IMG/VR virus record: IMGVR_UViG_3300006076_000001
Span: 29,787-93,786 of that record
Strand: one strand, 5' to 3'
DNA from: a virus
DNA length: 64,000 nucleotides
Part shown: piece by piece, positions 1 through 40,391 of the stretch
How positions within the stretch are numbered: the first letter of the stretch is position 1
How the letters are laid out: the number at the start of each line of letters is the position of its first letter
The notes under the pieces: generated by a model
The model's database searches: none
What the model saw: only the letters and a program-made list of their open reading frames with translations
Told to the model about the DNA's origin: nothing
Translations under genes and position numbers: made by a program

Positions 1-1105
1 ACTTTCTAGCATAGACTCTATTTTTAACTTTACCTAACTTTTGCCTAATAAAAGATTTAACTATATTATTTTTATATAACCACCAGTCTTCCCAAATGTG
101 TATAAGAGTTATACCTTTATTAGCAAAGTATAATGATTTTTCTTGATGATACTTTTTAGGTTTATTAATATCGGAATGCCAAAAAATACCATTATATTCA
201 AACCCTATGTTTAATTCTGGAATAAACACATCGATTTCATACTTATTATCTTTGTATTTAGTAGTGTTAAAGCCTAATGATTCAATAAATTGTCTAAGCT
301 CTTCTTCCCCTTTAGAATAATTACTAGCACATTTGGGACACCCATATCCAGATAAATGATTATCAATAATTTGTTTAAATTCTCCGTGAATAGGACAAAT
401 AATAGTAACTTCGGTATCTTTTCTTTTATTATAACTCCTATCCCACCAATTTTTACCAACAGGATAAGTGTATTTGTTATTATGAGTTCTAATAGCTCTT
501 TCAATAAACTCTTGATAGGATAATCGTTTGGAATCGTTTGATTTTTCTCTACCACACTCAGGACAACCCTCTCCTCTTAAATGAGCGTTCACACTCTGCA
601 TAAATTCTCCGTGAATAGGACAGATAATGGGGACTTTCTGACTATGATTTTTGTAATTTTCTTGCCACCAGTTATTATCAAAAGGGTATTGATACCTATT
701 ATTATGAACTCTTTTTGCTTTATTAATAAAGTCTTGGTATGATAATCTATGCTTTTTAATTGAGTTTATTCTACCACACTCAGGACAACCTTTACCACTT
801 AAATGACCTAAAATACTCTGTTTAAATTCTCCGTGAATAGGACAGATAATAGGTATCTTTGTATTTTTATCTTTATAATTAATAACAAACCAATCAAATG
901 TAAATTGAGAATAATTGTATCTATTATTATGAGTTTTTTCTAATTTTTCTCTAACCAAATAATATTGGAACTCTTTTGGCAACTTGGAAATAGTAATAGG
1001 GTTTATGGATTTAAGTTTTTCTATTGGTTGTTTGTCTAACCAATCAATCCACTTATTTATATCAGAAAGGTTATCTGTAAGTTGTTTTATTTCTGATAAC
1101 TTCAT
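1..1105 (-). CDS. Zinc-ribbon-repeat (CPxHG...GCPxC x3) Hef-like endonuclease; runs off the left edge of the window
   Basis: Absent from the ORF track (no stop in window). Hand translation from ATG 1105 (SD AGGAG): MKLSEIKQLTDNLSDINKW...ISKLPKEFQYY..., 3 repeats, then YEIDVFIPELNIGFEYNGIFWHS...RVYARK. Paralogue of 21770..23611. Confidence 0.85.
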   Translation of the reverse strand, partial: MKLSEIKQLTDNLSDINKWIDWLDKQPIEKLKSINPITISKLPKEFQYYLVREKLEKTHNNRYNYSQFTFDWFVINYKDKNTKIPIICPIHGEFKQSILGHLSGKGCPECGRINSIKKHRLSYQDFINKAKRVHNNRYQYPFDNNWWQENYKNHSQKVPIICPIHGEFMQSVNAHLRGEGCPECGREKSNDSKRLSYQEFIERAIRTHNNKYTYPVGKNWWDRSYNKRKDTEVTIICPIHGEFKQIIDNHLSGYGCPKCASNYSKGEEELRQFIESLGFNTTKYKDNKYEIDVFIPELNIGFEYNGIFWHSDINKPKKYHQEKSLYFANKGITLIHIWEDWWLYKNNIVKSFIRQKLGKVKNRVYARK

Positions 1106-1168: not shown

Positions 1169-1195
1169 AAAAGAAGAAAATCCTCAAAGAGGATT
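1169..1195 (-). terminator. Rho-independent terminator after the major capsid gene
   Basis: AATCCTC-TTT-GAGGATT hairpin followed by TTCTTCTTTT on the minus strand. Confidence 0.7.
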
Positions 1196-2060: not shown

Positions 2061-2071
2061 CTCTCAACTCC

Positions 2072-2530
2072 TTATATAAAGAATCTAATTTTTACTGTTT
2101 TGTCAGTAGCACTATTAGCACTTCTTGCTACCGCAACCGCAACTGAATTATTAGATGGTTTATTTTTAGTTAAAAGACCTTTATTATTATCTTTACCAAT
2201 GTAAAGTAGGTCTCCAGCTTTAATATCAGTTTCAACTACTTGGTCTGTTTCTGCAACACCACCACCCATTACAATAGCTAATTTACCAGTAGCTACTGAT
2301 GCTTGGTTAGTTCCATATTGAGATACTGCATCGTGAACGATGAAACCTGCATCTACATCTCCGTCTTCAGCTAATTCAACATAACCATTTTTTACAGTTG
2401 CAACTCTACCTGAAACCAAACTTCTTAGATAATCAGATTGTAAATCTGTATTTAAATCACCAGTTAATTTAGCTGGGTTAAGTTCATTGCTTCCGTCAAT
2501 TGCCCCAAATATATATGCTAACTTTAACAT
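2072..2530 (-). CDS. Head decoration/cement protein
   Basis: Gly/Ala/Val-rich, IKAGDLLY...GLLT motif, immediately upstream of the capsid gene. Confidence 0.65.
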   Translation of the reverse strand: MLKLAYIFGAIDGSNELNPAKLTGDLNTDLQSDYLRSLVSGRVATVKNGYVELAEDGDVDAGFIVHDAVSQYGTNQASVATGKLAIVMGGGVAETDQVVETDIKAGDLLYIGKDNNKGLLTKNKPSNNSVAVAVARSANSATDKTVKIRFFI

Positions 2531-3270
2531 TATTTACCTCCTCCTATGAAATCGAATAATCCAGTTACACCACTTGTAGGCATTTTTTTATTAACTACTT
2601 TTTTAGCAACTGCTGGTTTTCTTTTAGTTGCTTTTGGTTTTTTTGATGCTGTAACTGCTGGTTGAGCTTCTTCATCTTCTTGGTCGTCTTCTTCGTCACC
2701 CTCTTCTTCAACCATTACATCATCACCATTGCCAAATAAATCTTCTGCGTCCTCGTGGTCTCCCTCAAAGTCTTCTGGAAGTTCTCCGTGACCCTCATCT
2801 ACATCTGCTACACCATCATTATCTTGGTCGTCTTCATCTGCATCTTCAACCATTACATCATCATTTTCATCATCTGCTGGTTGAGTTTCTTCATCACCAC
2901 CTAATTCTTGAAGCACATCATCAACTGTAACCTCTTCCCCGTCATCTTCTGCATCTTCTTCTGAAGTTTTACATTTAGCAATTGCTGATTTTAGTAAATC
3001 AACTTTTGTAGCAAGGATTGCTGTATCTTCAAGTAAATCTGCTGTTCCTTTATCTAAACTTGATAAAGCTTCAACTGTAGCAACTTTGTCTTTCACATTT
3101 GCATAAAGTCTTTGTAAGTCTGTAGCCATTTTATCTAATTCAGCTGAAATTTTTTTGTGGTCTTTTGCCACTTTTGCCACTGCTAACACTCTATCTAATT
3201 TTTTATCCATAGCTGTTAAAGCTTTTTGAGCTTTAGCCACTGTCCTTTTGGCAATCAATGGTTTTGGCAT
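2530..3270 (-). CDS. Capsid scaffolding protein (putative)
   Basis: Coiled-coil N-terminus, long D/E-rich tract, basic tail; position before decoration and capsid genes. Confidence 0.55.
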   Translation of the reverse strand: MPKPLIAKRTVAKAQKALTAMDKKLDRVLAVAKVAKDHKKISAELDKMATDLQRLYANVKDKVATVEALSSLDKGTADLLEDTAILATKVDLLKSAIAKCKTSEEDAEDDGEEVTVDDVLQELGGDEETQPADDENDDVMVEDADEDDQDNDGVADVDEGHGELPEDFEGDHEDAEDLFGNGDDVMVEEEGDEEDDQEDEEAQPAVTASKKPKATKRKPAVAKKVVNKKMPTSGVTGLFDFIGGGK

Positions 3271-3370: not shown

Positions 3371-3985
3371 TCAGAGAGGGTTTATGTCTATTAACTCTCT
3401 CTTAAACCTACTTTTATCTGGTAAAACCAAAATTAATGTGTCTTTTCCTTTCTCTAAGGATTGTAATTTAGGTAATAATTTTATAAACTCATCATAAGAA
3501 TTAATAATTATTTCTTTTGTAATAGGCTTGGTTTGTTGATGTGTTTCTTCTTTATCTATATCAGAAGATATGTCTTCTTGTGTTTTTTCTTTGTCTTCCT
3601 TGCATTCTGTAGCATTATTAGCTATATTAGTAGCTGGATTATCTTTATGTGGCTCTTCTTGATTTTCTTTAAACCCATTTTCTAATAATTGCCACTTCAT
3701 AATCTCCAAATGATAAGTGTATGGATTTAAAGATGATGTAGCGGTGTAACTACCCCATTTATCATACTCCACATCAAATTTAAAAGTGATATACGGATAG
3801 CCAACTTGGTTAAACACTTTTTGTAATTCAATAATTCTAACCATTTGTAAAGCTAAAGGTTGATGTAAAAATCTATCCATTATATTCACGATTTCATCGT
3901 GCACCGAAAAATTATTAATAAATAAGTCCTGATGTAAATTTAACATAACCTCTTTCATTGTTTTATCTAACTTAATCAATGGCAT
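3371..3985 (-). CDS. Family-A DNA polymerase C-terminal palm fragment (motif C) plus unrelated tail
   Basis: FSVHDEIV matches motif C (VHDE), followed by a FKFDVE...GSY end-of-palm-like segment; directly downstream of the motif-B fragment. Confidence 0.65.
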   Translation of the reverse strand: MPLIKLDKTMKEVMLNLHQDLFINNFSVHDEIVNIMDRFLHQPLALQMVRIIELQKVFNQVGYPYITFKFDVEYDKWGSYTATSSLNPYTYHLEIMKWQLLENGFKENQEEPHKDNPATNIANNATECKEDKEKTQEDISSDIDKEETHQQTKPITKEIIINSYDEFIKLLPKLQSLEKGKDTLILVLPDKSRFKRELIDINPL

Positions 3986-4032
3986 TTTATTGTCTCCTTA
4001 ATAATTTTTTTTCTATTTCTTTGATTGTCATC

Positions 4033-4863
4033 TTAAAAAATCTTTTCTAAGTTCCATTTTTCTATAAAATCGACTGGGAATGATACCAATCTATCTAATT
4101 CTAAAATTACTTGTTCTCCGTCATAAACAATAAATTTATGTGAGCCATCTGGTAAAGCATCTAACTCTTTTTCTAACTGCTCTTTGTCTATCTTATCAAA
4201 TTTATCTTTAGATAGACCTATTATTCTTGTGTATGGTTTATAGGTATGTTTTAAGTCCCCAAACATTCTATTTAGTCTATTTTTTTCAATCCACTTATTT
4301 ATAGCCGTAATGATGAGAATCAATTGGATAGCTGATGCACTCTGAATTGGAAAGTTCATCGCTAATCTCTCAGCTTGGGATTTAAGAGACCAATATTTCT
4401 TTCTAAGTTTTGGGTCGGCTTTTTCCTCTGGAGTAATTTTTCTTGTAGCCATAGGTAAATATCTTTTTGAGCCAAAAATGTTATCTGTGTACCCCTCAGT
4501 TTTTACTCTTTCTTTTTGAAATTTATGTAATACTTTAAGTCTTGATAGATTAGAATAAAATCTATTAATAATTTCATTTGCTTCCTCTTTTGATATACCT
4601 ACTTTTTGAGAGACTGTGTATTCAGTTCCACCATATAATAAAGCTAACCCGACTGTTTTAGCAATAGCCCTCATTTCATTTTTGAATTTATGATATGCCT
4701 CTTTATTACCAGTTGCTTCATACTCCCTAACCAATTTATCAAACTCTTCTCCATAAATGGATAAAGCATTGGCACTATGGAAGTCTCCTATATAAGTTTT
4801 TGGAGTATCATCTTTATAATCTTTTAATTCCTCAAAAATCTTACTTAACTTAGCTTTATCCAT
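4033..4863 (-). CDS. Family-A DNA polymerase fingers fragment (motif B)
   Basis: GDFHSANA, RAIAKTVGLALLYGG (motif B), GYTDNIFGSKRYLP, AERLAMNFPIQSASA; lacks motifs A and C. Confidence 0.9.
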   Translation of the reverse strand: MDKAKLSKIFEELKDYKDDTPKTYIGDFHSANALSIYGEEFDKLVREYEATGNKEAYHKFKNEMRAIAKTVGLALLYGGTEYTVSQKVGISKEEANEIINRFYSNLSRLKVLHKFQKERVKTEGYTDNIFGSKRYLPMATRKITPEEKADPKLRKKYWSLKSQAERLAMNFPIQSASAIQLILIITAINKWIEKNRLNRMFGDLKHTYKPYTRIIGLSKDKFDKIDKEQLEKELDALPDGSHKFIVYDGEQVILELDRLVSFPVDFIEKWNLEKIF

Positions 4864-5253
4864 TATTTGCTCCTTTTACTCCTACATTTGTAATTTTATT
4901 TATCTCCCACATTTTATTTTCCGAATGAAAAGTAAATACATAGTTAATGTCTCTATCAAAGAAATATTGTTTATCTCTATCACAAACTGGTATTTTTTCT
5001 GGATTTAGATTTAAGAAAGAATACAAAGTGTAAATGTTAAGTGGGGTTATTTTTAACCCTCTTGTATCTTCATTAAATGAGACCTCAAAATCTAAATGAC
5101 TTTTATCATACCCTAAATCTAAACATACAGATAATAAATCAGAGTGTATTTGATGTATTAAAAAATTAGTATAAATGGCACATTCATACTTATTTAACAC
5201 TTTCTGAATCTCTAACCTTAACTGAAATTTAGTTTTATCCATTATTTGCTCCT
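4851..5253. repeat. 24-bp direct repeat (1 mismatch) flanking ORF 4856..5242
   Basis: tagctttatccattatttgctcct at 4851-4874 and tagttttatccattatttgctcct at 5230-5253; each contains SD+ATG on the minus strand. Confidence 0.85.
4856..5242 (-). CDS. Hypothetical protein (128 aa)
   Basis: ORF with SD, overlapping both neighbouring genes. Confidence 0.6.
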   Translation of the reverse strand: MDKTKFQLRLEIQKVLNKYECAIYTNFLIHQIHSDLLSVCLDLGYDKSHLDFEVSFNEDTRGLKITPLNIYTLYSFLNLNPEKIPVCDRDKQYFFDRDINYVFTFHSENKMWEINKITNVGVKGANNG

Positions 5254-6566
5254 ATTTCTGATTTCACTAAATCAATAATTGTTTTCTTTATTTCCTCATC
5301 AGTCTTATAATATGGTATTCTAATTAATTTAATTTTGTTATCTTTTGCAAAAGTATCTTTAATTTTATCTCTTTGTTTAATTTTTTCAAATCCTATTTTT
5401 CCACCCCAATTATCAACTGGCTCAAAATGTTGTTTTCCGTCATACTCAATAAAGGTGTTATAATCTGGAAGATAGAAATCAAAATAATAATTTGAATCAT
5501 TAATTTTAACTCTGTATTGATGAATATAATTAACACCTAATTCATCTAAAATTGATTGAATAAATAACTCTCCTTTTGAAGTATTACATTTAGGACAGCC
5601 GTGATTGTTTAAATGATTGTCTATCCTTTGATAAAACAATTCGTGTTGAGGACAAACAATTGGGATTTTTTGTTTATTATTTTGATAATTACTCTGCCAC
5701 CAATCCAATGATGGATAGGTATATCTATCTCCGTGAGTTTGGATAGCACTCTTAATAAAGTCTTGATATGATAATCTATGATTGTTTTCCAGCTTTTCTC
5801 TACCACATTTGAGACAACCTCTACCCTGTAAATGACTTTCTACACTTTGATAAAATAAGCCGTGAATGGGACAGATAATAGGTATTTGGGTAGAGTTATT
5901 TTTGTAATTTTCTTGCCACCAATTAGCATCAATTGGGTAGATATAAAAATCATTATGGATTTTAGTGGCTTTATTAATAAACTCTTCATAAGATAATCGT
6001 TTAAAATCTTCTGATTTCTTTCTCCCACATTTGGGACAACCTCTACCCTGTAAATGTTTAGCTATTTTTTGTTTAAATTCTCCGTGAATAGAACAAACAA
6101 TTGGAATATAAGTTGATTGTAAAGTTTTGTAGTTTTCTTGCCACCAATTTTCATCAAAAGGATAGATGTATTTATTATTGTGAATCTTATTTGTTCTATC
6201 TATAAACTCTTTATAAGACATTTTTAAAGTGTTTTTACCACATTTAGGACAGCCATATAATTGATGGTTAGTAACACTTTGATAAAATAAGCCGTGAGTA
6301 GGACAAACAATTGGGACTTTAGTGTTTTTATCTTTATAATTGGAAATAAACCAATCCAATGTAAATTGAGAATAGTTGTATCTATTTTTATGAACTTTTC
6401 TAAATTTCTCTAAAATCAAATGGTATTGAAACTCTTTTGGTAATTTAGAAATGGTTGATGATTTTATTGATTTTAAATCATTAAAAGAGAGGTTTTGGAG
6501 AAGTCCTCTCCACTTATCTAAATTAGATAAGTTGTCTGTAAGTTGTTTAATTTCTTTCAAATTCAT
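5235..6566 (-). CDS. Zinc-ribbon-repeat (x4) endonuclease with DUF559/Vsr-like PD-(D/E)xK domain; putative homing endonuclease
   Basis: 4 CxxH...GCxKC repeats; SKGE..I, FDFYLPDYNTFIEYDGKQHF, D..KD.FAKDNKIKLIRIPY. Confidence 0.85.
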   Translation of the reverse strand: MNLKEIKQLTDNLSNLDKWRGLLQNLSFNDLKSIKSSTISKLPKEFQYHLILEKFRKVHKNRYNYSQFTLDWFISNYKDKNTKVPIVCPTHGLFYQSVTNHQLYGCPKCGKNTLKMSYKEFIDRTNKIHNNKYIYPFDENWWQENYKTLQSTYIPIVCSIHGEFKQKIAKHLQGRGCPKCGRKKSEDFKRLSYEEFINKATKIHNDFYIYPIDANWWQENYKNNSTQIPIICPIHGLFYQSVESHLQGRGCLKCGREKLENNHRLSYQDFIKSAIQTHGDRYTYPSLDWWQSNYQNNKQKIPIVCPQHELFYQRIDNHLNNHGCPKCNTSKGELFIQSILDELGVNYIHQYRVKINDSNYYFDFYLPDYNTFIEYDGKQHFEPVDNWGGKIGFEKIKQRDKIKDTFAKDNKIKLIRIPYYKTDEEIKKTIIDLVKSEIGANNG

Positions 6567-6576
6567 TTAAACTCTT

Positions 6577-7653
6577 TTAATCAAAGAGGTCATCTACATC
6601 TACTGCTTTTTTATTTCCAGTGCTTCTTTCGAAAGAATAATCAGTTACTGTATTAGTAAATGGGTTTGTATCTCTAACTTTCATTGATGATGAATCTTCT
6701 GCTTCAAATCTATCATCATATCTTTTGTAAGGGTTTTCTGTGTAAGAACTATAAGGGTTATTTGAAATACCTATCTCTCTAAGTCTTTTATTAGCTAAAA
6801 ATCTTGTATATTTTTCTATGATTGCATCAGAGAAACCTACAATTGGAGCAAGAATATCTTTACTAAATTGTTCTTCTAATTCTACTCCTTTTCTCATTTC
6901 TTCAATAACCATTTCCTCATCAAAGAAATCTGGGTATATTGCTCTTATCTCTTTAATTAAGTTTCTATATAGGATTAGATGTGAAACTTCGTCTCTATTG
7001 ATTAAGTAAATCATATCTGCGGTAGACCTCATTAGTCCTTTCTCAGCAAGAATGTAAAAGAACTTAAATCCATTATAAAAATAAAGTCCCTCTAAAATAT
7101 AATCACCAATAATAGCTCTAGCAAAAGTTCTATCAGTAGGGTTATCTGCGAAATCCTGATAAATTTGAGCTATATATCCATTTCTTTCTTTAAGTAATTC
7201 GTGAGTTCTCCAAAAGTCATAGATTTGTTTCTTCTCCTCTGGAGTAGGTATTACAGTCTCAATACAAGTAGAATAAGCCTGAGAATGTATGTCTTCTTGA
7301 AAAGCTTGGAAAACTAATAAAGATGTTACATCTGGAGCTGTGATGTATGAAGCAAACTGAAATGGATTGATTGTTTGAATTGAATCTAAAAACACTAAAA
7401 ATGACAGAATACCATTATATCCTCTTTGAACTTCTGGTAATAAGTTAGGATATTGTCTAGCATCTTCATAGAACTCTATATCCTCTGGAAACCAAATGTC
7501 CTTTCTCATTTTAGTTCTTAAATCTTGATACCATTTTTTATTTGCATATTTACCAAAGTTATGAGTAGCCAATCCAGTTGTATTAGCACCAATAATATCA
7601 TTTTTAAATGAATCTCCCTCTGGATTCCATAGTCTTCTTTTTTTAATCCTCAT
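6577..7653 (-). CDS. nrdB: Ribonucleotide reductase beta subunit (own SD+ATG inside the fused ORF 6577..8757)
   Basis: WFPEDI, DSIQ, EDIHSQAY, LEGLYFYNGF, RDEVSH di-metal ligands; AAGGAG upstream of ATG 7653. Confidence 0.92.
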   Translation of the reverse strand: MRIKKRRLWNPEGDSFKNDIIGANTTGLATHNFGKYANKKWYQDLRTKMRKDIWFPEDIEFYEDARQYPNLLPEVQRGYNGILSFLVFLDSIQTINPFQFASYITAPDVTSLLVFQAFQEDIHSQAYSTCIETVIPTPEEKKQIYDFWRTHELLKERNGYIAQIYQDFADNPTDRTFARAIIGDYILEGLYFYNGFKFFYILAEKGLMRSTADMIYLINRDEVSHLILYRNLIKEIRAIYPDFFDEEMVIEEMRKGVELEEQFSKDILAPIVGFSDAIIEKYTRFLANKRLREIGISNNPYSSYTENPYKRYDDRFEAEDSSSMKVRDTNPFTNTVTDYSFERSTGNKKAVDVDDLFD

Positions 7654-8757
7654 AGCTCTATCTCCTTTCATCTTAATTAAATTTTTAATAGTGTGTTCCA
7701 CTTCTTCATCAGTTTTATAATATGGTATTCTAACCAATTTAATTTGGTTGTTTTTTGCAAAATCATTTTTAATTTTATCCCTCTGTTTTACCTTTTCAAA
7801 CCCTACCCTACCACCCCAACCCTTAATTGGTTTAAAGTGCTGTTCTCCGTCATACTCAATAAAAATGTTATAGTCTGGAAGATAAAAGTCAAAATAATAA
7901 TTTGAATCATTAATTTTAACTCTATATTGATAGATATAATTAACATCTAAATCGTCTAAAATTGATTTTATTTTGAGTTCTCCCTTAGACGATTTACAAA
8001 CAGGACAGCCGTGATTGTTTAAATGATTATTAACTGATTGATAAAATAGACCGTGAATAGGACAAATAATTGGGACTTTGGTGTTATCTTTTCCTTTATA
8101 ATTTTCTCGCCACCAGTTATTATCAAAAGGGTACTGATAGTAACTATTATGGATTTTAGTAGCTTTATCAATAAACCCTTTATAAGACAATTTTTGATTA
8201 TCAGTTGAACTCTTTTTTCCACACTTAGGACAGCCGTGATTATTTAAATGGTCGCCTACTCTCTGATAAAACAAACTATGAATAGGGCAAATAATAGGGG
8301 CTTTGGTATGTCTGTTTTTATAATTTTTATTCCACCAATTCTCATTAAATGGATACTGATATCTACCATTATGAATCTGAATAGCTTTTCTAATAAAATC
8401 TTGATAGGATAATTTTTTATTTCCAATACATTTAGAACAATTTTGCCCTCTCAAATGTCTATCTATCCTTTGATAAAACAATCCGTGTTGAGGACAAATG
8501 ATTGGAACTTTTTGTTTGTTATTTTGATAATTATCTATAAACCAATTTAAGGTAAATTTAGAATAATCATATCTATTTCCGTGAATCTTTCTAAACTTCT
8601 CTTTAACCAAATAATATTGGAACTCTTTTGGCAACTTGGAGATGGTTGTTGGTTTTATTAGTTTTAATTCCTCAAGAGAGGAATTTTTAATAAACCCTTT
8701 CCATTTGTATAAACTTTTGAAGTTGTCTGTAAGTTGTTTAATTTCTTTCAAATTCAC
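7654..8757 (-). CDS. Zinc-ribbon-repeat (x3) endonuclease with no stop codon, reading in frame into nrdB
   Basis: Same N-terminal leader and FDFYLPDYNIFIEYDGEQHF nuclease domain as 5235..6566; open frame continues ...IKMKGDRA-MRIKKRRLWNP. Confidence 0.85.
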
Positions 8758-8770
8758 TAAATCCCCTATT

Positions 8771-9214
8771 TTAATTTATTTCCCCGTCATCATCTATAAT
8801 GACATACTTTTTATTTCCAAAAAGGTTAGTATCCTCATCTTTTGATTTAGGTTTAGCTGGAGCAACTTTTAATTGTTCTTTCTTTTTTATATAAGTTTTA
8901 AGTAGAACACAATACCCTACTAAATCATTTATCGTATCTACTATCGTCTCATCGCTAACATTTATCTCTTCGCTTTTTGTTATAGATGCAAGTCTGGATA
9001 GTTTATCACCCATTCTACTAATAATAACTGATTCAACTGGAATGTCTAATAAGTCTGCAGATAGTTTAAAGTTTTTAAAAGTGTCTTCTTTACCAGAATA
9101 ATCTCTACCTTTTCTAACCAAAGTGTCCTTTAATTCAGAAAATGTTTTGTCTAATGTTTCAATCACTTCTTCTTGTGTAGCAAATACATTGTGATGAATT
9201 TTTCTTCTTTTCAT
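8771..9214 (-). CDS. DUF1599-like nucleotide-modification-associated all-alpha NTP pyrophosphohydrolase (putative)
   Basis: RKGRDYS...NF, RMGDKLSRL, DETIVDTINDLVGY motifs; likely start ATG 9214 after AAGGAG. Confidence 0.65.
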   Translation of the reverse strand: MKRRKIHHNVFATQEEVIETLDKTFSELKDTLVRKGRDYSGKEDTFKNFKLSADLLDIPVESVIISRMGDKLSRLASITKSEEINVSDETIVDTINDLVGYCVLLKTYIKKKEQLKVAPAKPKSKDEDTNLFGNKKYVIIDDDGEIN

Positions 9215-9273
9215 TTGTTTTTCTCCTTTCATTATTTATGCCTTGTTTTTATAAGGTTATTTAGATTTTATGA

Positions 9274-9861
9274 TTAATTTCCTCTGTATTCTTCCCACTG
9301 ATTGAGGGTAAAATCAAATTTATATCTAATTGGTTTTAATCGGTCTAAAAACATCATAATAGGCTTAACCTCTCTACCCTTCATTTCTAATAAAAGCTGA
9401 TAATCATCAATTTGAGATGGGACTGAAAGATAATATTGAACCACCTCTGTTTTAGACTCTTTTAATGGAAAATGCTTACTTTTTAAAATCATTAAATTAA
9501 CATTAAATTGTTTTTCAAATTGTTTAATTAACCTTTTTGCTATTGAAGAAAGCTCTTTTTTATTATCAATCTCAATAGTGTAATTACCTTTAACAAAAGT
9601 AATTTTAGAATCTGATTTGTCGTCCATTTTAAAGTTTTGCTCTTCTATCCATTTTATCCATTCATCTAACTTTCCCCCACAAAATTTATATCTGTATTCT
9701 ACATTGCCACCCTCTTTACCAAAGACAAACCACCATTTATATTGGTCTGCCTTTTCCAAATATACAAATGGGTCGGTAATTGATTCAAATAATTGAACTG
9801 CTCTTTCTTTACAACAAGGGTACTGAATAATTTTATCCATTAATGTCTCCTTTATCTTCAA
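9274..9861 (-). CDS. Hypothetical protein
   Basis: 195-aa ORF in operon orientation. Confidence 0.55.
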   Translation of the reverse strand: MKIKETLMDKIIQYPCCKERAVQLFESITDPFVYLEKADQYKWWFVFGKEGGNVEYRYKFCGGKLDEWIKWIEEQNFKMDDKSDSKITFVKGNYTIEIDNKKELSSIAKRLIKQFEKQFNVNLMILKSKHFPLKESKTEVVQYYLSVPSQIDDYQLLLEMKGREVKPIMMFLDRLKPIRYKFDFTLNQWEEYRGN

Positions 9862-10771
9862 AATCTGGAGCTACTCCACTACCAATATTATTTAATATGG
9901 ATAAGTCTGTTTCCAGCAAGTCTTCCTCTACTTTTTTATAATGATTAACTATTTTATCATCAGTGAAAATAATTTCTTTAAATAAAGTTGGTAATGATTT
10001 AATCATTAAATAAGAAACTATTCTAAACTCCCAAAGAGCCTCTGGAGATAATCTTAGATGTAAAATGTGTAAAAACTCTCTAAAATTGACTGTAAATTGA
10101 AGTTCTGTTCTAAAAGACTCTGGGATTGAAAATTTAGCAATGTCGTTAGAAACTCCCACACTTATGCTTTGTCTTACATTTTCCAATGCTAAAATAGAGT
10201 TATGGTCTGTCCTATCATTACCTGTATAAATCAGATATTTAGAAGCCCTTTTACCTATTTCTGTTTCTTGACAACGGAAATCCGATTCTAAATAAAATGG
10301 CTTTTCATCTTTCAACTCTTTCAAAGTGTATCTGGTAGATTTAACAGTCGGACTAATTAACCTATGGCGTGAAAATTCCTGTAAGGTGGCTCTACTCATT
10401 CCAATATGGAATGACAAAGTGCTATGTTCTAACACTGATTCGTGTTTATATTTAAACCCAACTCTCTTAATGAGTTCTTTATCTTTATATCCTAAATGAT
10501 GATAAATTGGGACTCTGGTAAAACAATCATTACACTCTATCTCATCATTTTCATTCCTATAGATGTTAGTACCTCCACATTCTCCACAAGTCAATTGGTT
10601 TTTCTGATTATGTAAAACATTTATCATATATGAATCACTAAGTCTGTGATTATTATGTGAATATCTAATCCCGTTAGCTATAAGCCATAAAGGTTTATAA
10701 TCCAAAAGTTTAACATCGATGTTTGTGTCAATTGGTCTGCAACTTTCATAAGGTAAGTTAATTCTAATCAT
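9833..10771 (-). CDS. thyX: Flavin-dependent thymidylate synthase with inserted zinc ribbon
   Basis: HESVLEH, SRATLQEFSRHR, STRY, NFREFLH..LR....ALWEFR; CGEC...CNDC insert. Confidence 0.93.
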   Translation of the reverse strand: MIRINLPYESCRPIDTNIDVKLLDYKPLWLIANGIRYSHNNHRLSDSYMINVLHNQKNQLTCGECGGTNIYRNENDEIECNDCFTRVPIYHHLGYKDKELIKRVGFKYKHESVLEHSTLSFHIGMSRATLQEFSRHRLISPTVKSTRYTLKELKDEKPFYLESDFRCQETEIGKRASKYLIYTGNDRTDHNSILALENVRQSISVGVSNDIAKFSIPESFRTELQFTVNFREFLHILHLRLSPEALWEFRIVSYLMIKSLPTLFKEIIFTDDKIVNHYKKVEEDLLETDLSILNNIGSGVAPDFEDKGDING

Positions 10772-10784
10772 TTTTCTTCTCCTT

Positions 10785-11009
10785 TTATTTAAAGATTAAA
10801 TAATCAATGGGATAAAAAATGATAGCCCCTATAATTTGGACTATTACTAAATGAATAAACTCTTGATATTTACCAGAACAACATTTAATTTTAATAAGCA
10901 ACCATAATGGCAACATCATAACCAAAGCAGATAATATCCATCTACCTAAATAAAGTAAGAACTGAAAAGAAAAGTAATCTACAAACATTTTATTTTCCTT
11001 TAACATCAT
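10785..11009 (-). CDS. Small two-TM membrane protein (GtrA-like?)
   Basis: Two hydrophobic segments, ends FYPIDYLIFK. Confidence 0.45.
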   Translation of the reverse strand: MMLKENKMFVDYFSFQFLLYLGRWILSALVMMLPLWLLIKIKCCSGKYQEFIHLVIVQIIGAIIFYPIDYLIFK

Positions 11010-11718
11010 TCAAATATAATTTAATTGACAGTAGATTTCCGATAAAGTTATTAACTTTATCTAAATAATAGGTTGGGTTTTTTGGTATCACCCCATAGTA
11101 TCTTATAATAGCTGACTCCATTGGTGTTTTAACTCCCTTTAAAATAGGTTTTTCTCTTAAAGTTTTAAGAATAAAAGCGGTTGCCTCTACATTTGTATCA
11201 ATGTTATACAAGTCTGACTTTGTAGTAGCGATTTTAGCTTTAATTAAGTCCCATTTCCACATTTCCCAAATAACACCACCTAAACCAATAGCTCTTGTAT
11301 GTATCTTAACAAACCTTGTTTTAGATTGATTAATAGGGACTGAAACATAAACTCTTGAATGTTTAATCCAAAATCTCATTGAACTCTCAGTATGTAACAC
11401 TGCAAACAAAATAATAGGAGAGATGTTATACTTTTTAGAATATTTTAAGATAGCATCATAAATTCTCATTTTAGATTTATTTGATAAAAAATTATAATGA
11501 GAGTATAAGTAATCTTTTAAATCGTCTTTTGTAATTCCAACAAGAGAACTATTAGAATCAATATAAACAGGAACTTTTTTTATCACTTTATTTTCAACTA
11601 TTTTAGTTATTGTTTTAACCTCAGGTTTAATGTGAGTTAGTTTATAAACCAAAAAACCAATCACAATAATACCAATTACCCAACTGGAAATAATTAAAAT
11701 AATGACTCTTTTATTCAT
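10990..11718 (-). CDS. Membrane-anchored lytic transglycosylase (SLT-like)
   Basis: N-terminal TM helix; AVLHTESS catalytic Glu, AIGLGGV, LYNIDTNV, AIIRYYG; likely start MNKRV at 11718. Confidence 0.75.
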   Translation of the reverse strand: MNKRVIILIISSWVIGIIVIGFLVYKLTHIKPEVKTITKIVENKVIKKVPVYIDSNSSLVGITKDDLKDYLYSHYNFLSNKSKMRIYDAILKYSKKYNISPIILFAVLHTESSMRFWIKHSRVYVSVPINQSKTRFVKIHTRAIGLGGVIWEMWKWDLIKAKIATTKSDLYNIDTNVEATAFILKTLREKPILKGVKTPMESAIIRYYGVIPKNPTYYLDKVNNFIGNLLSIKLYLNDVKGK

Positions 11719-12229
11719 TTGACTCCCCTTTAATAAAATAAAAATCATCTGGTTTAGATAAGAACTGGTCTAAAGTAATAATCATATTATCTTTATAATA
11801 AAGGATTGGAGAAAAGTCTTTATTTAAAGTATTAGGTAGGATACAAAATGGATTAACTAAGTTATATTTAACTATAACTACCCAATAAGGTTTGCCAGAA
11901 GTTTTATTATCCAATTTAGCTTGTTCTATCCATTTATCCCATTGAGTAATTTTTTGCTCTAAAAATGATTTAAAAGATGGTGGGTTTCCGTAAAATTTAC
12001 ACTCTATATTAAATTTAAAGTTTTTTGGAGTAACTATGTCTCCAACAACTTTTGCATCGTCCGCTACCATCATAGCAACTCTGGCATTTTTACCACCAAA
12101 TCTAGACCCACTTCCTAAATTTCTAAGAAACCCTTTTTTAACTTTAAGATAAGAAGCAAACCTATCAGAAAGAAGATTTGCTATCTTTCTTTCAAAATTA
12201 TCCCCCTTAGCTTTAGAATTAATTGCCAT
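11711..12229 (-). CDS. Holliday junction resolvase (Hjc-like PD-(D/E)xK)
   Basis: NSKAKG..FERKIA, GSG, GDI, IECK, W.EQA. Confidence 0.8.
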   Translation of the reverse strand: MAINSKAKGDNFERKIANLLSDRFASYLKVKKGFLRNLGSGSRFGGKNARVAMMVADDAKVVGDIVTPKNFKFNIECKFYGNPPSFKSFLEQKITQWDKWIEQAKLDNKTSGKPYWVVIVKYNLVNPFCILPNTLNKDFSPILYYKDNMIITLDQFLSKPDDFYFIKGESNE

Positions 12230-12230
12230 T

Positions 12231-12842
12231 TTATAACTCCATTTGAATTATATTTTGACCTGAAGCCATTATTTCATTTATAGCTGATGAGTCTAAGATT
12301 TTTTGTTTTAATCTGATTGATGACTCTAATCTCATCAAATAATCGTTTTGCTTATCAAGGAACTTGACAAGCTCTTTTATTGAGTTATAAACTCTTTCTA
12401 TCCTCTTAAATTGATTAGACAAAGGAAGAGTAATGTAATTAACCTCTCTTTCTCTTTCTGCATTTGAATTGGTTAAATGATACAGAGTTTCATCAACCAA
12501 TAATTCCTGTTGAGTAGTAGATAATGTTATTTTAGCATCATTGTAAAGTTTATTTACCTCTGGCATAATATAAACAGCATTTTTAGTCAAAATGTCATTC
12601 AATTTATAAATGGCTTTATGGATTAATGCTAAAGCATCTAATTGAGGTAGATTTTTCTCTACTAATTCAGAAGCTATTTTATAAGGAATGTAAGGTGAAT
12701 CTACAAATTCAAGGACTTGTTTTCTAAGTTTAGTTTGGTATTCGCTAAGTTCTTTTTCTACTTCTTTAAATTCCTCTACCATTGGCTCTATTTCTTTTCT
12801 CTTATCTCTTCTAAAAGAAAAAATTGTTTTAACTTTTTGCAT
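12231..12842 (-). CDS. Helical coiled-coil protein (possibly UvsY-like recombination mediator)
   Basis: All-helical character, adjacent to resolvase; weak. Confidence 0.3.
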   Translation of the reverse strand: MQKVKTIFSFRRDKRKEIEPMVEEFKEVEKELSEYQTKLRKQVLEFVDSPYIPYKIASELVEKNLPQLDALALIHKAIYKLNDILTKNAVYIMPEVNKLYNDAKITLSTTQQELLVDETLYHLTNSNAEREREVNYITLPLSNQFKRIERVYNSIKELVKFLDKQNDYLMRLESSIRLKQKILDSSAINEIMASGQNIIQMEL

Positions 12843-13864
12843 CTTCTGACTCCTTTCCTGCTATGTTTTCAACATTGTTTGCATAGTATATTTCAAAGTC
12901 CTCTTTAGAAACTTCCATAATATTTATTATAACAATATTATCAAAATCTACTTTCAATGATTTTGCTATATCTTCAACCAGAGTTTTTCTATTTACAAAT
13001 AGTCCGTTACCAGTAATTATGGAGATTTCTCCGTATTGTTTATCAAATGAACTCATTCCTAAAGGACTAACAAACTCTCTTGTATAAACAAAAGAAATTA
13101 TAAAATATCTTTTATTCACTTTCATCTGATTTACCTTTTTCTTTTTTATAATAAGCTGTAATAAGTTTAGCTAAATTAGAAATCATTTCACCTTTATGAT
13201 ACAAATAATCACTATAGTTAATTACCCCGTCAATTACAAATGATTGATAATGGTTTATTCTGTTTATAGTTTGCAATGTTTGAATAACTGGCATTTTATC
13301 AGAAGCAATTGTGTATCTGATTTCAAGTCTGCCTCCTTTTGATGAGTAGTCGTCTCTAAGTGGATTTTTATAATCAGATGCAACAATTACTTCCACTGGT
13401 TTTAAATTAGCTTCTTCAATGTCTTTTAGATATTTATCTTTGTATTGACTTGGTAGTTTATCTAAAATCTCTTTAATAACTAAACTAAGCATCTCCGACT
13501 CCTTTCTGATTTATTATTTTAAATAAGTATCCACAACAGGTGTGTATCTTTTGTAACTAGGTGAAGAAAATAATAACTCTAATTGAGTTGTTTTGTTCTC
13601 CTCACTTTTAATTTTAATATCATTAATAATTTGCCATCTGCTTTGCTCTGCCTCATCAGGATTACCATAAACAAATTCAATTTCTTCTACTCTTGTATCT
13701 GATAATTTCACTGTAACTGAATAAACATAACTGACTTCTTTTTGTTTCTTAAAAAATCCCCCTGTAACTTCTACCCTTTCTTCCACTGGAGAAATCATTA
13801 AAATATTATTATAATCTCCAACCAATGTGCCATCTGGCAATAAAATTGCTTTATCCATTTTCAA
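12829..13864 (-). CDS. Three hypothetical proteins (12829-13125, 13112-13492, 13514-13864)
   Basis: Closely packed ORFs with SD-like sequences; no recognisable motifs. Confidence 0.55.
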
Positions 13865-13880
13865 ACCTCCTAATATAAGA

Positions 13881-15599
13881 TTAATTCTTGCTTTTATATT
13901 CCCAAGAAATTAAAGTGTTAATTATTCTTTGTTCTGCTTCTCTCTCTAACTCTTCCATTTGTGGGAGTTTAGTAACGACTTTTTTTAATTTAACCAATTT
14001 TGGTGATTCTGACGGCATACCCTGAGTATTTAAAGAGTGGGTAATACCATTACCTAATTTTAATTTACAATTTGTTTTAGTTTTAAGTTTATTAAAAGTT
14101 GCATATCTTGGGTGTCCTGACCCTTTTTCATTTGCAAATCTTAGGGTATCAGTACCGATGTATCTCAAATTAATATTAACAAAAAAATGGTTTCTGTCAT
14201 CAATGTAAAGGTTATATAAAATACCATAATAAATTGCTATATCTTTAACTAAAGACCTATATAAAGAAATAATACTTAATAAAGTTTGAATATCTTGTTT
14301 AGTATCCTCTGGTAAGAACTCTGCTTCCATAACAGCTGATTTAAATTTAGATAAAATGGAGTCATCCATATTGAACTGCTCTTTAATTGCACCACTTTTT
14401 AATTTATCTACTTTTCTAACCAATCCAAAATAGTCCTCTATATACTTATAGAAGTTATTTTCATCTCCTTTCCATAAAGGTTTTAGTATATAATTAACTA
14501 TTATCACAGACACCATAGGACTGACTACTGATATCTCCTCTTCATAACCATACTTTTTAAGTGTATTAATAAATTTTTGCTCTAAAAGTATCATTCTAAT
14601 GTTAATTGTTTTGATTGTCCTAACCAATCTGTCTTTATCGATTAAAAGCCCGTATTGTAAAGATGAAATTACATAATACAAAGCTTGATGAACTATTTTA
14701 GTTGTAGTAGGTTGCTCTTTATATGGGTTTCTACCATAAATGTCGTCTATCACAAATGCTTTAAACAAACCATAGGTATTAGTAGCATCTGACCCAGCAT
14801 ATGTTAAAGCATTTGAAACTGGCAACCTGTTAAAAGAAATGTGATTTTTAGTGGGTAAATTTAAAATTTCATTAATTTCAAGCATCTTTCTATTAAGTAC
14901 ATACTCTGATAATGCTTTAAGCCCATGACCTATATTCATAGGCATAAACTCTTGATTATTCATCAATTTTGAAACCAACATTGTATCTGTTATTGGGATA
15001 TTACCTATTTTAATTCCCCAGTTAGATAAATGAGCTAAGTCAAATTGTGCGTTATGTAAAACAATATGGAAATTGTCTATCAACCATTGTAAAAATGGTT
15101 TGACTTGTGTCTCCCAATCTAAATTTTTTATGCCATCTGTTTCTGTATGTTTAACTGGTAAAATAAACCCCTCTTTATCAGAAATAGCTAACGGAACTGA
15201 AACGATTTCTGTATCTGGAACAAACCTACCTTTAATCAATTTACCTTTAGTAGATAACCCCGAAGTTTCTAAATCCAATGCAATAACAGGTTTATTGAAG
15301 CCGTCATAAGTAACTGCTTTCTCTTTAATATAACTTTTGAATTTATCTAAATCTTTATCTACAACTTCTACATAATCAGCAATTGGAGTAAATAATTTAT
15401 CCTTATCAATCTCAGTTGTAATAATTTTAAAAGAACATTCCTTTACCCAGTCGTGCATTTTAGCAAAATTATGAGGTAAAAATACCTCTGACGGCTCTAA
15501 TGGAGAAAAGTCTTTTTCTAATTTACTATCAATTAATTCCTGATAATTTGGGATTTCAACAGGAACTTTATCATAAACAAAAAAATCTTTATACTTCAA
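13881..15599 (-). CDS. Family-A DNA polymerase N-terminal fragment (3'-5' exonuclease, thumb, start of palm)
   Basis: ExoI ALDLETSGL, ExoII LHNAQFDL, DTML, ExoIII YAGSDA; GTDTLRFA (cf. TGRLSS), LNTQGMP (cf. NLQNIP); ends before motif A. Confidence 0.88.
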   Translation of the reverse strand: MKYKDFFVYDKVPVEIPNYQELIDSKLEKDFSPLEPSEVFLPHNFAKMHDWVKECSFKIITTEIDKDKLFTPIADYVEVVDKDLDKFKSYIKEKAVTYDGFNKPVIALDLETSGLSTKGKLIKGRFVPDTEIVSVPLAISDKEGFILPVKHTETDGIKNLDWETQVKPFLQWLIDNFHIVLHNAQFDLAHLSNWGIKIGNIPITDTMLVSKLMNNQEFMPMNIGHGLKALSEYVLNRKMLEINEILNLPTKNHISFNRLPVSNALTYAGSDATNTYGLFKAFVIDDIYGRNPYKEQPTTTKIVHQALYYVISSLQYGLLIDKDRLVRTIKTINIRMILLEQKFINTLKKYGYEEEISVVSPMVSVIIVNYILKPLWKGDENNFYKYIEDYFGLVRKVDKLKSGAIKEQFNMDDSILSKFKSAVMEAEFLPEDTKQDIQTLLSIISLYRSLVKDIAIYYGILYNLYIDDRNHFFVNINLRYIGTDTLRFANEKGSGHPRYATFNKLKTKTNCKLKLGNGITHSLNTQGMPSESPKLVKLKKVVTKLPQMEELEREAEQRIINTLISWEYKSKN

Positions 15600-23611: not shown

Positions 23612-23648
23612 CTGACTCCCTTTATATTATCTTTACTTTTTATAATAA

Positions 23649-29278: not shown

Positions 29279-29280
29279 TC

Positions 29281-33389: not shown

Positions 33390-33403
33390 TTTCTGACTCC
33401 TTT

Positions 33404-35309: not shown

Positions 35310-36413
35310 TCAACCAACCATTTCATTTTCTATCTCCTTGAATCCTAATTCTTTTAATTGAGACTTCATCAAATCTAAATTATTATCCTCTTTATCAAAT
35401 AAAGAATAGTCTAAGAATAAAAATCTTGAGAAATCTAAAAAAGATAACATTAAAATAAACTCTCTAATATTAGTAGGTTTATATTTTAAGTAGTTTTCAG
35501 CTAAATAGTCTATTACTTTATCAATAAACACTTTTTTATAAATTGGGTCTAAAACATTAATAAACTTACCATATTTAATTCCAACTAATAATTTAGGCAA
35601 GTTGTGTATTATATTATCAGGAAAATTATAAAAGGTTTGTTCTGTTTTATTTATACCAATTACCAAAGTTTTACCGATTAACTCCAAGAAGTTTTTTATT
35701 TCTGATGAGTAATTAGTTATCTCACCAAAAGCTATAATGTATTTTTCCATTTTAGAAATAGCCTCTCTTAAAGAGCCATTTGCTTCCAAAGCAATTAATC
35801 TAAGTTGATTTAAGTCATACTTAATTTGTTCTTTTTTAACAATTAATTCAAGATAACTAATTATTTCTGAATCGGATAGTGGATTAAAATCCAAATTAAT
35901 CATTCTTGTAACCAAAGGTTGAATTATTTTCTCTTTATTTGTAGTTGTAAAAATAAAAATTGTCCTATTAGTAGAAAATTCAAACAAATTAAGAAACTCT
36001 GACAATGCCTGAGGACTCATTCTCTGTATTTCATCAATAACAATTACTTTATATTTACCATAAATCGGTAATTGTTTAGCTAAATTAATTATAGGTTTTA
36101 TTTTATCTACTTGATTATACTCCGCCCCGTCCAATGAAACAAAGTCTTTAAAAGAATTATTATCAAATGCTTTACAATTATCACAACTATTGCACGGATT
36201 ACCATTTATAGGTTGTTTGCAATTAATGGCTTTAGCCAAAATTCTAGCCGATGTAGTTTTACCAACTCCTCCTATTTTTGGTGAAGTAAATAGGAACTCT
36301 CTTCTGATTTCAAAGCCTCTATTCTTAACCAATGATTTAAGATAATTTTTATTAAAATCATTACCGACTAATTCGTCAAAGACTTTTGGTCTATATTTAT
36401 TATACAGATTCAT
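35310..36413 (-). CDS. dnaX: Clamp-loader ATPase (DnaX gamma/tau-like)
   Basis: LYNKYRP..FDELVG, GVGKTT, C...PCNSCDNC, VIDE, GSLREA. Confidence 0.9.
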   Translation of the reverse strand: MNLYNKYRPKVFDELVGNDFNKNYLKSLVKNRGFEIRREFLFTSPKIGGVGKTTSARILAKAINCKQPINGNPCNSCDNCKAFDNNSFKDFVSLDGAEYNQVDKIKPIINLAKQLPIYGKYKVIVIDEIQRMSPQALSEFLNLFEFSTNRTIFIFTTTNKEKIIQPLVTRMINLDFNPLSDSEIISYLELIVKKEQIKYDLNQLRLIALEANGSLREAISKMEKYIIAFGEITNYSSEIKNFLELIGKTLVIGINKTEQTFYNFPDNIIHNLPKLLVGIKYGKFINVLDPIYKKVFIDKVIDYLAENYLKYKPTNIREFILMLSFLDFSRFLFLDYSLFDKEDNNLDLMKSQLKELGFKEIENEMVG

Positions 36414-37782: not shown

Positions 37783-37824
37783 TCAGACTCCTTACACTGA
37801 TTTTGTCAGTGTTTTATAATGAAA

Positions 37825-39020: not shown

Positions 39021-40391
39021 CTAAATGTAATAAACATCTAAAATGTCTTTACCAAATTGAGCTAATGCAAATCTATAATTAGAATCTTTTAAGCTATCAT
39101 CAGGGACATTCTTTCTGAATGCTTTACCAAAAATGATTTCTACACTATCCTTAAATTTTAAAAATTCAGGGTCGTTAGGATTTTTAAACCCTTTATAATT
39201 AAGAAATGTCATAGATAAAATGTTAAATCCAGTAGTCATAACTGCCCTATTTAACAATATAGCACTAACTACATCATTTTTTGGTTTTGCTATTCTTCTT
39301 GGTAATTTAGTTAAAGTAGTAAGTTCCAATAAATCTGGAACAGGGACTCCCAAATTATCTGCTATTTCTCTCCAAGATACTTCTCTTTCATCTGGCATAA
39401 ATGCTCCAGATGTACCTACATAACCCTCAATAATATCTACCACAATAAAATCATCGAAACCATATGGTGTAACTGGTTTTTTATTTTCCATTATTTCATA
39501 GGCAATTGAATTAACATCGCTATAGGTTAAACCTACTTCAGATGGGGTAACTATTTTCTCTTCTCCTGTATTTTTATCCATTATTAAAAGTTTAACTTTA
39601 TCCATTGAATTATTAACAAATCTATTAGACACTCTAATAGGATAAACTCTCAAATTACCGATTGAGTTACCCATATAAAATTGATTTAAACCAATATCAG
39701 ACATCGCTTGTAATGGGTTTATGTTTCTAAAAGTTGATTTTCTTCTTTCTGGAGAATAATCGATAGACAACATATACCCCTGAGGCATTTCATAAAGTGC
39801 TATTTCTCCTCTATCTAAATGTTCTTTTATCATCTCTGTAAATTCAGGATAATCCACCACTGTAGCAAACTCTTCAATCTCTGGTCTGTCTCCAGCCCAT
39901 TTATAACATTTGTCCCTACTAATTTTATCATAAAATCCAGCTGATTGACCTGATGAAGTAGAGCCTAAATGAGTAACTCCTCCGTCCATCCATTTGCCAC
40001 AATTTGCTTTTTGATTTTCTCTAATTTTATGCTCTTCTTCTACTACAAATGCCCTTGCCGAAACAATTATCTTATCTTTAGGTAATTTACACCATTCAAT
40101 TTCTTTTCTAAGTTGTTCTATTTCAAACCCTGCTGACGGAGCAATAAAAACAATTGGTTCATACCCTAATAAATCATATCTATTTAAAGCTGATGCAACT
40201 GGTAACACTTTAAACACAAAAGTTTCTCCAAATCCAGTAAATGTATGAGAAGCTGAATTTGCCGAATTACTTATTAATACTTTTGGTCTTTCTCTTAATG
40301 CAATAGCTGATGCTATTTGACCTTTACCACTACTACCCGCTCCTATATCAAATAGGAAATTTACTTTTCCTGACTTTAATACACCTTGCAT
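39021..40391 (-). CDS. purZ: PurZ-type adenylosuccinate synthetase paralogue (2-aminoadenine pathway)
   Basis: P-loop GSSGKG (Ser where PurA has GDEGKG), SHT, GST, QG..LS, R.YPIRV, ELTTLTKLPRRI, TFLNY instead of PurA TKLD. Confidence 0.8.
   Translation of the reverse strand: MQGVLKSGKVNFLFDIGAGSSGKGQIASAIALRERPKVLISNSANSASHTFTGFGETFVFKVLPVASALNRYDLLGYEPIVFIAPSAGFEIEQLRKEIEWCKLPKDKIIVSARAFVVEEEHKIRENQKANCGKWMDGGVTHLGSTSSGQSAGFYDKISRDKCYKWAGDRPEIEEFATVVDYPEFTEMIKEHLDRGEIALYEMPQGYMLSIDYSPERRKSTFRNINPLQAMSDIGLNQFYMGNSIGNLRVYPIRVSNRFVNNSMDKVKLLIMDKNTGEEKIVTPSEVGLTYSDVNSIAYEIMENKKPVTPYGFDDFIVVDIIEGYVGTSGAFMPDEREVSWREIADNLGVPVPDLLELTTLTKLPRRIAKPKNDVVSAILLNRAVMTTGFNILSMTFLNYKGFKNPNDPEFLKFKDSVEIIFGKAFRKNVPDDSLKDSNYRFALAQFGKDILDVYYI

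Follow-up and report, generated by a model that had tools for sequence, protein, structure and literature searches.

Family-A DNA polymerases (PolA) are single-chain 'right hand' enzymes. A split between the exonuclease and the polymerase has been described in T7-like cyanophages (S-SBP1 and its relatives), and a family-wide survey called it the first split in PolA (Czernecki et al. 2023, PMC10201439). In the OM43 phages MEP401 and MEP402, PolA is found in two open reading frames (ORFs), for which the authors suspected an intron (PMC10580990). In Aeromonas phage Aeh1 the homing endonuclease mobE has split NrdA into NrdA-a and NrdA-b, and the tails derived from the insertion are needed for activity (Crona et al. 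2011, PMC3045599). In 'fractured genes', a free-standing homing endonuclease, often Vsr-like, separates the halves of a split intein (Dassa et al. 2009, PMC2677866), and the same paper cites work by Petrov, Karam and co-workers on T4-related Aeromonas phages with a family-B polymerase (PolB) split into gp43A and gp43B, in one case, as cited there, with a GIY-YIG endonuclease gene in between. Here we describe a PolA whose parts are encoded by four scattered genes in an uncultured phage, known from the 93,786-bp IMG/VR virus record IMGVR_UViG_3300006076_000001. The stretch analysed, bases 29787-93786 of that record (64,000 nucleotides, nt; hereafter the window), carries three of these genes, p1, p2 and p3; the fourth, pA, lies 6.6 kb past its left edge.

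The polymerase domain of this phage is not found on one polypeptide but on four ORFs, each with its own Shine-Dalgarno (SD) sequence, start and stop. We consider it probable, at roughly 0.7, that these are separately translated into the parts of one family-A replicative polymerase, which would assemble non-covalently; this reading is drawn from sequence comparison. A preliminary description of the window had located p1, p2 and p3, the last two with an SD of their own, had reported that motif A was in none of them, and had predicted that a fourth gene elsewhere would carry it. The ORFs were confirmed on the minus strand (Table 1), with an SD before each (GGAGTC for p1, AGGAG for p2 and AAGGAG for p3), motif A is indeed missing from all three, and a six-frame profile search of the whole genome found the predicted gene outside the window.

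Table 1. Positions of the polymerase pieces and of other genes discussed in the text (aa, amino acids).
Feature	Window	Genome	Strand	Description
p1 (PolA piece 1)	13881..15599	43667-45385	-	572 aa, TTG start; exonuclease, thumb, N-x-Q-G, conserved 44-aa C-terminal tail
pA = P0011 (PolA piece 2 in protein order)		22333-23148	-	272 aa; Arg-Arg segment, four-Cys cluster, motif A
p2 (PolA piece 3 in protein order)	4033..4863	33819-34649	-	276 aa; fingers, motif B, ~60-aa C-terminal module
p3 (PolA piece 4 in protein order)	3371..3985	33157-33771	-	204 aa; motif C, last palm strands, acidic linker, C-terminal module
orf128	4856..5242		-	128 aa; between homing endonuclease and p2
Free-standing homing-endonuclease-like gene	5235..6566		-	443 aa; zinc-finger repeats, C-terminal nuclease domain; phrog_559 (E 3e-85), DUF4379, DUF723
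Endonuclease fused in frame to ribonucleotide reductase small subunit (NrdB)	6577..8757		-	726 aa; PF00268 at residues 407-676 (E 2e-59)
Endonuclease paralogue, runs off the window	2..1105	29254-30900	-	flanks the scaffold/decoration/capsid block after p3
Clamp-loader-like AAA+ protein	35310..36413		-	PF13177 DNA_pol3_delta2 (E 7e-24)
PurZ-like adenylosuccinate-synthetase homologue	39021..40391		-	PF00709 (E 2e-7); P-loop GSSGKG

The product of p1 matches PF01612, the model for the 3'-5' exonuclease of PolA (E 9e-14), its residues 59-488 match the DNA polymerase family phrog_17 of PHROG, and its family profile matches the Klenow fragment (E 9e-23). The exonuclease motifs ExoI (D109/E111), ExoII (N183/D187) and ExoIII (Y267/D271) are invariant across 10 sequences, and the thumb T-x-R (T485/R487) and the N-x-Q-G (N524/Q526/G527) are invariant in the alignment. 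The protein stops 44 aa past NTQGMP, the counterpart of N-L-Q-N-I-P, with which the thumb of Pol I closes. One chain carries both exonuclease and thumb, and the first break (break 1) falls after N-x-Q-G; the p1 homologue of a two-gene relative, locus L003 of IMG/VR, matches positions 11-124 of the polymerase model PF00476 (E 1.5e-17). The p2 protein matches positions 199-326 of the 381 of this model (E 5e-22), and its profile matches residues 396-526 of Bst Pol I (E 5e-23). It contains DFHS, motif B (R65, K69, Y77, G78), FGSKRYLP and NFPIQ (N-x-P-x-Q, with Q174), and Leu73 occupies the position of F762 in a manual alignment to Klenow numbering. No Pfam match was obtained for p3 itself; its family profile matches the motif-C, C-terminal end of two fused relatives, L003 and the three-gene locus L005 (E 4e-15 and 3e-9). 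Motif C of p3 reads SVHDE (H29, D30, E31), and the last palm strands hold FDVEYD (F70, D71, E73).

The motif-A gene was reached through L003 and L005, which served as probes in tblastn and phmmer searches of the six-frame genome. These pointed to one ORF (E 0.002-0.003); with the motif-A ORF of L005, tblastn matched genome positions 22609-22722 (E 0.002). Conversely, the profile of five stand-alone pA proteins aligned with that L005 ORF (E 3e-6) over its Cys cluster and, in colinear order, over its motif A. When the pA family was aligned by hhalign with the N-terminal parts of L003 and L005, only the Cys-cluster stretch was covered (probability 54%, E 1e-4). The motif reads NGDIANQEP in pA, LD[VI]SAQEP in its relatives, IDYSAIEPR in L005 and FDFSAIEPR in L003. 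Asp147, Glu152 and Pro153 of pA are invariant across the five stand-alone proteins, L005 and L003, and a helix past the motif, TL.S.EP.Y, is common to the alignment of pA, L005 and L003. Upstream of motif A, an invariant P-x-x-R-R-x-x-G resembles, in our reading, the Arg-rich stretch found after NLQNIP in Pol I. Searched on its own, pA matched nothing in Pfam at E <= 1 and gave no usable match in the ESM Atlas, and the pA and p3 profiles found chance matches only in the PDB. Three other candidates for motif A were set aside: EELEREAEQRI in the p1 tail, where the Asp is variable and the spacing does not fit; Asp2 at the N terminus of p2, dropped after pA had been found; and orf128, which had no profile match.

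In protein order the pieces run p1, pA, p2, p3, while they are transcribed in the order p1, p2, p3, pA; the genes are spread over 23 kb, and no circular permutation restores colinearity. Searches with the four profiles in six frames of the 93.8 kb located each piece in exactly one place, with no second copy or remnant. An intact polA elsewhere, a possibility raised in the preliminary description, did not turn up in the six-frame search of the record with hidden Markov models. The Pfam polymerase model matched p2 only in the whole genome, and the models for PolB, DnaE/PolC, protein-primed PolB and PrimPol found no match there. A DnaB-like helicase, a Toprim primase-like protein and a clamp loader are encoded, and the presence of the clamp-loader-like AAA+ protein indicates that the phage brings its own replisome accessories.

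Each piece recurs as a gene of its own in other phage sequences. Stand-alone homologues number nine for p1 (567-591 aa, 30-80% identity, with the same end point and a conserved tail), four for pA (266-274 aa, 41-83% identity) and seven for p2 (256-278 aa, 37-89% identity). For p3, an exhaustive HMMER search gave 55 representative clusters at 50% identity, almost all of 150-215 aa and aligned from their first residues; only in P0063 (407 aa) is the p3 part fused to a p2-like part. The catalytic residues are intact in the stand-alone homologues of each piece, and across 32 aligned members of the p3 family, whose mean column identity is 16%, H29, D30, E31, D71 and E73 do not vary. Conservation extends to the additional segments, namely the p1 tail, a Trp-rich pA tail and the C-terminal modules of p2 and p3. 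An independently assembled contig of 94,181 nt carries homologues of p1, pA and p2 (571, 267 and 278 aa), and one of 27,635 nt carries those of pA and p2. Only some of the pieces are present on two further IMG/VR fragments (62 kb and 42 kb), and dispersal is thus not peculiar to the genome studied.

The spacing of p2 and p3, 47 nt in the phage studied, is 21 nt in L030, 1.1 kb in L032 and 3.6 kb in L029, and in L031 p2 is directly followed by an endonuclease gene. In L030 the two genes are in the same frame and read-through was considered; it was rejected because the junction is a TAA followed by AAGGAG and then ATG. The gap in L032 (positions 480-1100) holds a 206-aa ORF with a MazG-like EExGD helix pattern, recognised by eye, and without a Pfam match at E <= 0.01. 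Less divided forms are also found. L003 consists of two genes, a p1 equivalent of 556 aa and, after it, an ORF of 596 aa that combines the Cys cluster, motif A, motif B and IHDE, and L005 has three ORFs, of 553 aa, 202 aa (ending just past its motif A) and 384 aa. In two jumbo-phage contigs, L010 and L011 (332 and 394 kb), a distant PolA lineage appears at ~9800-12440 as two adjacent ORFs of ~503 and ~373 aa, and two-piece PolA may have arisen more than once. As to the searches themselves, IMG/VR scans with a single p2 or with broad alignments recovered one locus, and one scan of a Joint Genome Institute (JGI) metagenome gave four short contigs.

The preliminary description assigned a non-polymerase C-terminal extension to each piece. 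Such extensions exist; those of p2 and p3 proved not to be specific to the breaks, as they also occur in P0063 and in less-split relatives. The C-terminal ~60 aa of p2 are homologous to the C-terminal ~50 aa of p3 (hhalign probability 95%, E 2e-8). In P0063 the sequence of the p2 'tail' forms an internal insertion, and the module occurs there at the C terminus as well; L003 and L005 show, by eye, a comparable C-terminal region past the last palm strands. The modules of p2 and p3, being found in fused or less-split relatives, must predate the breaks or be independent of them, and are not debris of breakage; the third break (break 3, before motif C) would then be one that arose just downstream of an existing internal copy of the module. 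In the AlphaFold2 (AF2) model of p3, with a predicted local distance difference test score (pLDDT) of 77, both domains are confident, and the C-terminal module (about residues 152-204), a beta-alpha-beta-beta unit, reaches ~90. That p2 and p3 have a module in common suggests a shared docking partner, which may be another subunit or a sliding clamp.

The breaks differ in their distribution. Break 1 is common to the phage studied, L003 and L005, at no more than 34% identity, and is therefore the oldest. Break 2 falls behind the helix that comes after motif A; L005 has it and L003 does not, and in both relatives the place lies in a Cys-rich insertion. Break 3 is absent from L003, L005 and P0063. 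The genome encodes five endonuclease paralogues, all composed of zinc-finger repeats and a nuclease domain at the C terminus, and those besides the 443-aa protein of Table 1 lie at genome positions 23153-24001, 29254-30900, 36366-38561 and 51559-53412. One of these genes is directly upstream of pA and another is one ORF upstream of p2, while none is found at the p2/p3 junction or beside p1. The N-terminal part of the NrdB fusion is 58% identical to the 443-aa endonuclease, and no stop separates the complete paralogue from the complete small subunit. For orf128 no match was found in Pfam or PHROG, and no homologue in related loci. An identical 20-nt stretch, AGGAGCAAATAATGGATAAA (an SD plus ATGGATAAA), occurs at window positions 4855-4874 and 5234-5253, with 0.04 such occurrences expected by chance. 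It marks the endonuclease/orf128 and orf128/p2 junctions, where the upstream ORFs end in GANNG and a stop and the downstream ORFs start with MDK, and is probably the footprint of a cassette insertion upstream of p2. Given the five paralogues, the NrdB fusion and this footprint, endonuclease activity is the likely driver of fragmentation, and homing endonucleases have probably caused or moved the breaks and driven the dispersal of the pieces.

The genes between the pieces are of mixed function. The 9 kb between p1 and p2 contain a PD-(D/E)XK nuclease, ThyX, an SLT-like protein, the endonuclease-NrdB fusion, the free-standing endonuclease and orf128. In the 10 kb between p3 and pA are found scaffold-like, decoration and major-capsid genes, an endonuclease, DnaB-like and UvrD-like helicases, and the endonuclease that adjoins pA upstream. 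Amid replication genes, the block of scaffold-like, decoration and major-capsid genes stands directly after p3, both here (window 1194-3270, minus strand) and at L029:15087-17096, and in the phage studied endonuclease genes flank this block on both sides. ThyX (window 9833-10771, minus strand) matches PF02511 at residues 96-259 and has an N-terminal extension of ~95 aa with a CxxC...CxxC cluster.

Separate genes need not mean separate proteins, and the pieces might be rejoined to one chain by trans-splicing split inteins, by trans-splicing introns or by a programmed DNA rearrangement in infection. The family itself provides examples. At L002:7755-10951 (IMG/VR), a p1 homologue is cut at ExoIII by a split intein, with a free-standing endonuclease gene between the halves; the upstream half carries the N-intein (C-V-V-G-S-T ... 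T-A-D-H) and the downstream half the C-intein (V-S-V-H-N, then Cys), so that L002 reads as a 'fractured gene' inside an already split polymerase. P0006, a metagenomic p1 homologue of 725 aa, has a ~150-aa mini-intein exactly at T-G-R (GTD/CLVAGT ... HHN/T). Endonuclease genes also lie beside pA and near p2, and a scrambled gene would look non-colinear in the way observed. Rejoining is nevertheless quite unlikely for the phage studied. The preliminary description had called the pieces intein-free, and the signatures that are plain in L002 and P0006 are missing at its breaks: on inspection of the alignments, the tails at all three have no Cys, no block opening with Cys or Ser at position 1, no TxxH block, no conserved Ser or Cys as junction nucleophile after the extein, and no conserved H-N followed by C/S/T before the next polymerase segment. 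No Pfam match to a Hint domain was found, and the intein negative is carried by the motif inspection with its positive controls, Pfam having missed the P0006 mini-intein at E <= 0.01. At break 1 the p1 tail and the N-terminal lead-in of pA come to ~93 aa in total, under the minimal size of an intein, and at break 3 the tail sequence stays internal in the fused P0063. Rfam detected no group I or group II intron at gathering thresholds in the 80 kb searched, and ordinary cis-splicing is ruled out because the gene order is non-colinear. The presence of an SD, start and stop on each piece, and the conservation of the terminal extensions at the protein level, likewise argue for translation of the pieces as they stand.

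If the pieces are not rejoined, they could also be decaying remnants, or proteins with separate jobs (p1, for example, as a stand-alone proofreading or repair exonuclease), with a host polymerase replicating the phage. pA models poorly alone, its motif A (NGDIANQEPY) is slightly degenerate, and the helicase, primase-like protein and clamp loader of the phage could cooperate with a polymerase of the host. We nonetheless regard it as unlikely. The Asp and Glu of motif A, the Arg, Lys and Tyr of motif B, Gln174 and the His-Asp-Glu of motif C are invariant on separate genes down to 22-30% identity, which would not be expected unless the active site were still used and speaks strongly against decay; moreover, the genes have no frameshifts or internal stops, and the order p3-scaffold-decoration-capsid is kept in related loci. 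An ordinary polA scrambled in a chimeric contig, or by misassembly or binning at the repeated endonuclease genes, is very unlikely indeed. The record is metagenome-derived, and the five paralogues (46-58% protein identity) and the 20-nt repeat could mislead an assembler, but at the DNA level the paralogues differ too much to collapse, breaks 1 and 3 occur in L003 and L030 without a nearby endonuclease, and the same ORF boundaries, tails and lengths recur in many independent contigs from different samples; nor can misassembly create SDs, starts, stops and conserved tails. Some points do weigh against a four-piece polymerase, whose assembly and activity stand as a prediction. The homology of pA to the canonical motif A is deduced from short matches through two intermediate relatives, not from Pfam or PDB, and the Arg of the motif ('IELR') is a Tyr in the phage studied and its closest relative. 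The AF2 model of pA alone is poor (pLDDT 44), which is uninformative and could reflect either a shallow alignment or a chain that needs its partners. Fold searches with p3 (Foldseek, VIA-align) gave no significant match, and the best polymerase row for its model, residues 890-978 of yeast Mip1 Pol gamma (Z 3.3, root-mean-square deviation 3.6, 68 residues), was tied with unrelated rows. Finally, CheckV puts the completeness of the record at 79%, and despite an exact direct terminal repeat of 99 bp, a polymerase gene beyond the record is conceivable.

The non-covalent assembly of four chains, which we prefer, suggests a model of the enzyme. p1 would supply the exonuclease, the thumb and the entry to the palm; pA the Arg-Arg segment, the four-Cys cluster and motif A; p2 the fingers and motif B; and p3 the final strands of the palm together with motif C. 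With breaks at the thumb/palm, palm/fingers and fingers/palm boundaries, three chains would jointly form the palm, and two of these would contribute the metal-binding carboxylates (Asp147 and Glu152 of pA, Asp30 and Glu31 of p3). Assembly is probably helped by the p1 tail, by the N-terminal region and Trp-rich C-terminal tail of pA, and by the duplicated ~50-aa module on p2 and p3. In a lineage heavily colonised by free-standing homing endonucleases, fragmentation would have proceeded stepwise, through two, three and four pieces, to five where an intein is present. The chances seem evenly balanced for a broader proposal, that a whole clade of uncultured phages uses an obligate hetero-tetrameric PolA with motifs A, B and C on three chains, docking segments and endonuclease-scattered genes, and that this enzyme copies 2-aminoadenine (Z) in the PurZ-encoding phage studied.

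The last of these elements goes back to the preliminary description, which considered that the polymerase might accept Z. One part of this idea has found support, as the phage encodes a PurZ-like protein, whose best PDB matches are phiVC8 PurZ (6FM1/6FKO, E 2e-14) and S-2L PurZ (7ODX), ahead of archaeal PurA. The other part has not: the polymerase pieces do not group with DpoZ in the PDB searches, where the matches listed for the p1 and p2 profiles are Klenow, Bst, Taq and Pol theta, with no chain named DpoZ among them, and Pfam detected neither MazG nor HD proteins, the types of MazZ and DatZ, in the genome. Assignment of the four-piece PolA as DpoZ is therefore unsupported. No other polymerase was found, so this enzyme would have to replicate the genome whatever its bases are.

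The G+C content of the record is ~29%, and the minus strand holds essentially all genes. A megablast search of GenBank phages with the 12-kb region gave no match, and thus no near relative, and tblastn searches of phages with p1 and p2 returned only distant PolA (23-35% identity). A search of genome contigs with the p2 profile yielded no clue to the host; it returned only ordinary bacterial Pol I, mostly from Clostridium, Bacilli and Acholeplasmataceae, at 23-33% identity.

In at least dozens of diverged phages, the thumb, motif A, the fingers and motif C are distributed over four proteins. Should the predicted assembly hold true, the palm of a polymerase can be put together from parts, the relatives form a natural series (one, two, three and four pieces, and five with an intein) of how an essential gene may survive fragmentation by selfish endonucleases, and the breaks and modules offer ready-made split points and docking modules for the engineering of split polymerases. 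Virome surveys that rely on PolA as a single marker gene largely miss such polymerases; the Pfam polymerase model recognises just one piece in four, so the clade is probably undercounted.

In the literature searched we found no PolA described whose motifs A, B and C are divided among different proteins, or whose pieces are out of colinear order, which is not proof of absence, and each of the known systems shares some features with the phage studied. The S-SBP1-type PolA is likewise encoded by more than one gene without an intein, and non-covalent reassociation has been predicted for it (PMC10201439). That enzyme, however, is encoded by two adjacent, colinear genes, separated by a 1-nt deletion at a break between the exonuclease and polymerase domains (PMC10201439), whereas the phage studied has four dispersed, non-colinear genes with all three breaks inside the polymerase domain. 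The PolA of MEP401 and MEP402, in which the N-terminal part of the polymerase domain stays with the exonuclease, resembles break 1 as seen here and in L003, but its pieces are adjacent, with one small ORF between them, and show no further fragmentation or dispersal. The fractured genes are similar in that a replication gene lies in separate ORFs near a free-standing endonuclease, and the relative L002 is a textbook case; they differ in that the three breaks described here have no intein blocks, and the protein is accordingly not religated. In the split PolB, too, the chains of a phage replicative polymerase are separately encoded, although, as far as the citing paper describes it, this is a family-B enzyme in two colinear pieces. 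The best mechanistic precedent for the proposed docking tails is the NrdA of Aeh1, an essential enzyme fragmented without splicing in a homing-endonuclease context, even though it is a different enzyme, whose two pieces share an operon and flank the endonuclease, and even though in the phage studied two of the 'tails' predate the break. Set beside these systems, the four-piece PolA is an extreme new variant of the theme of split replication genes, one that is widespread in uncultured phages.

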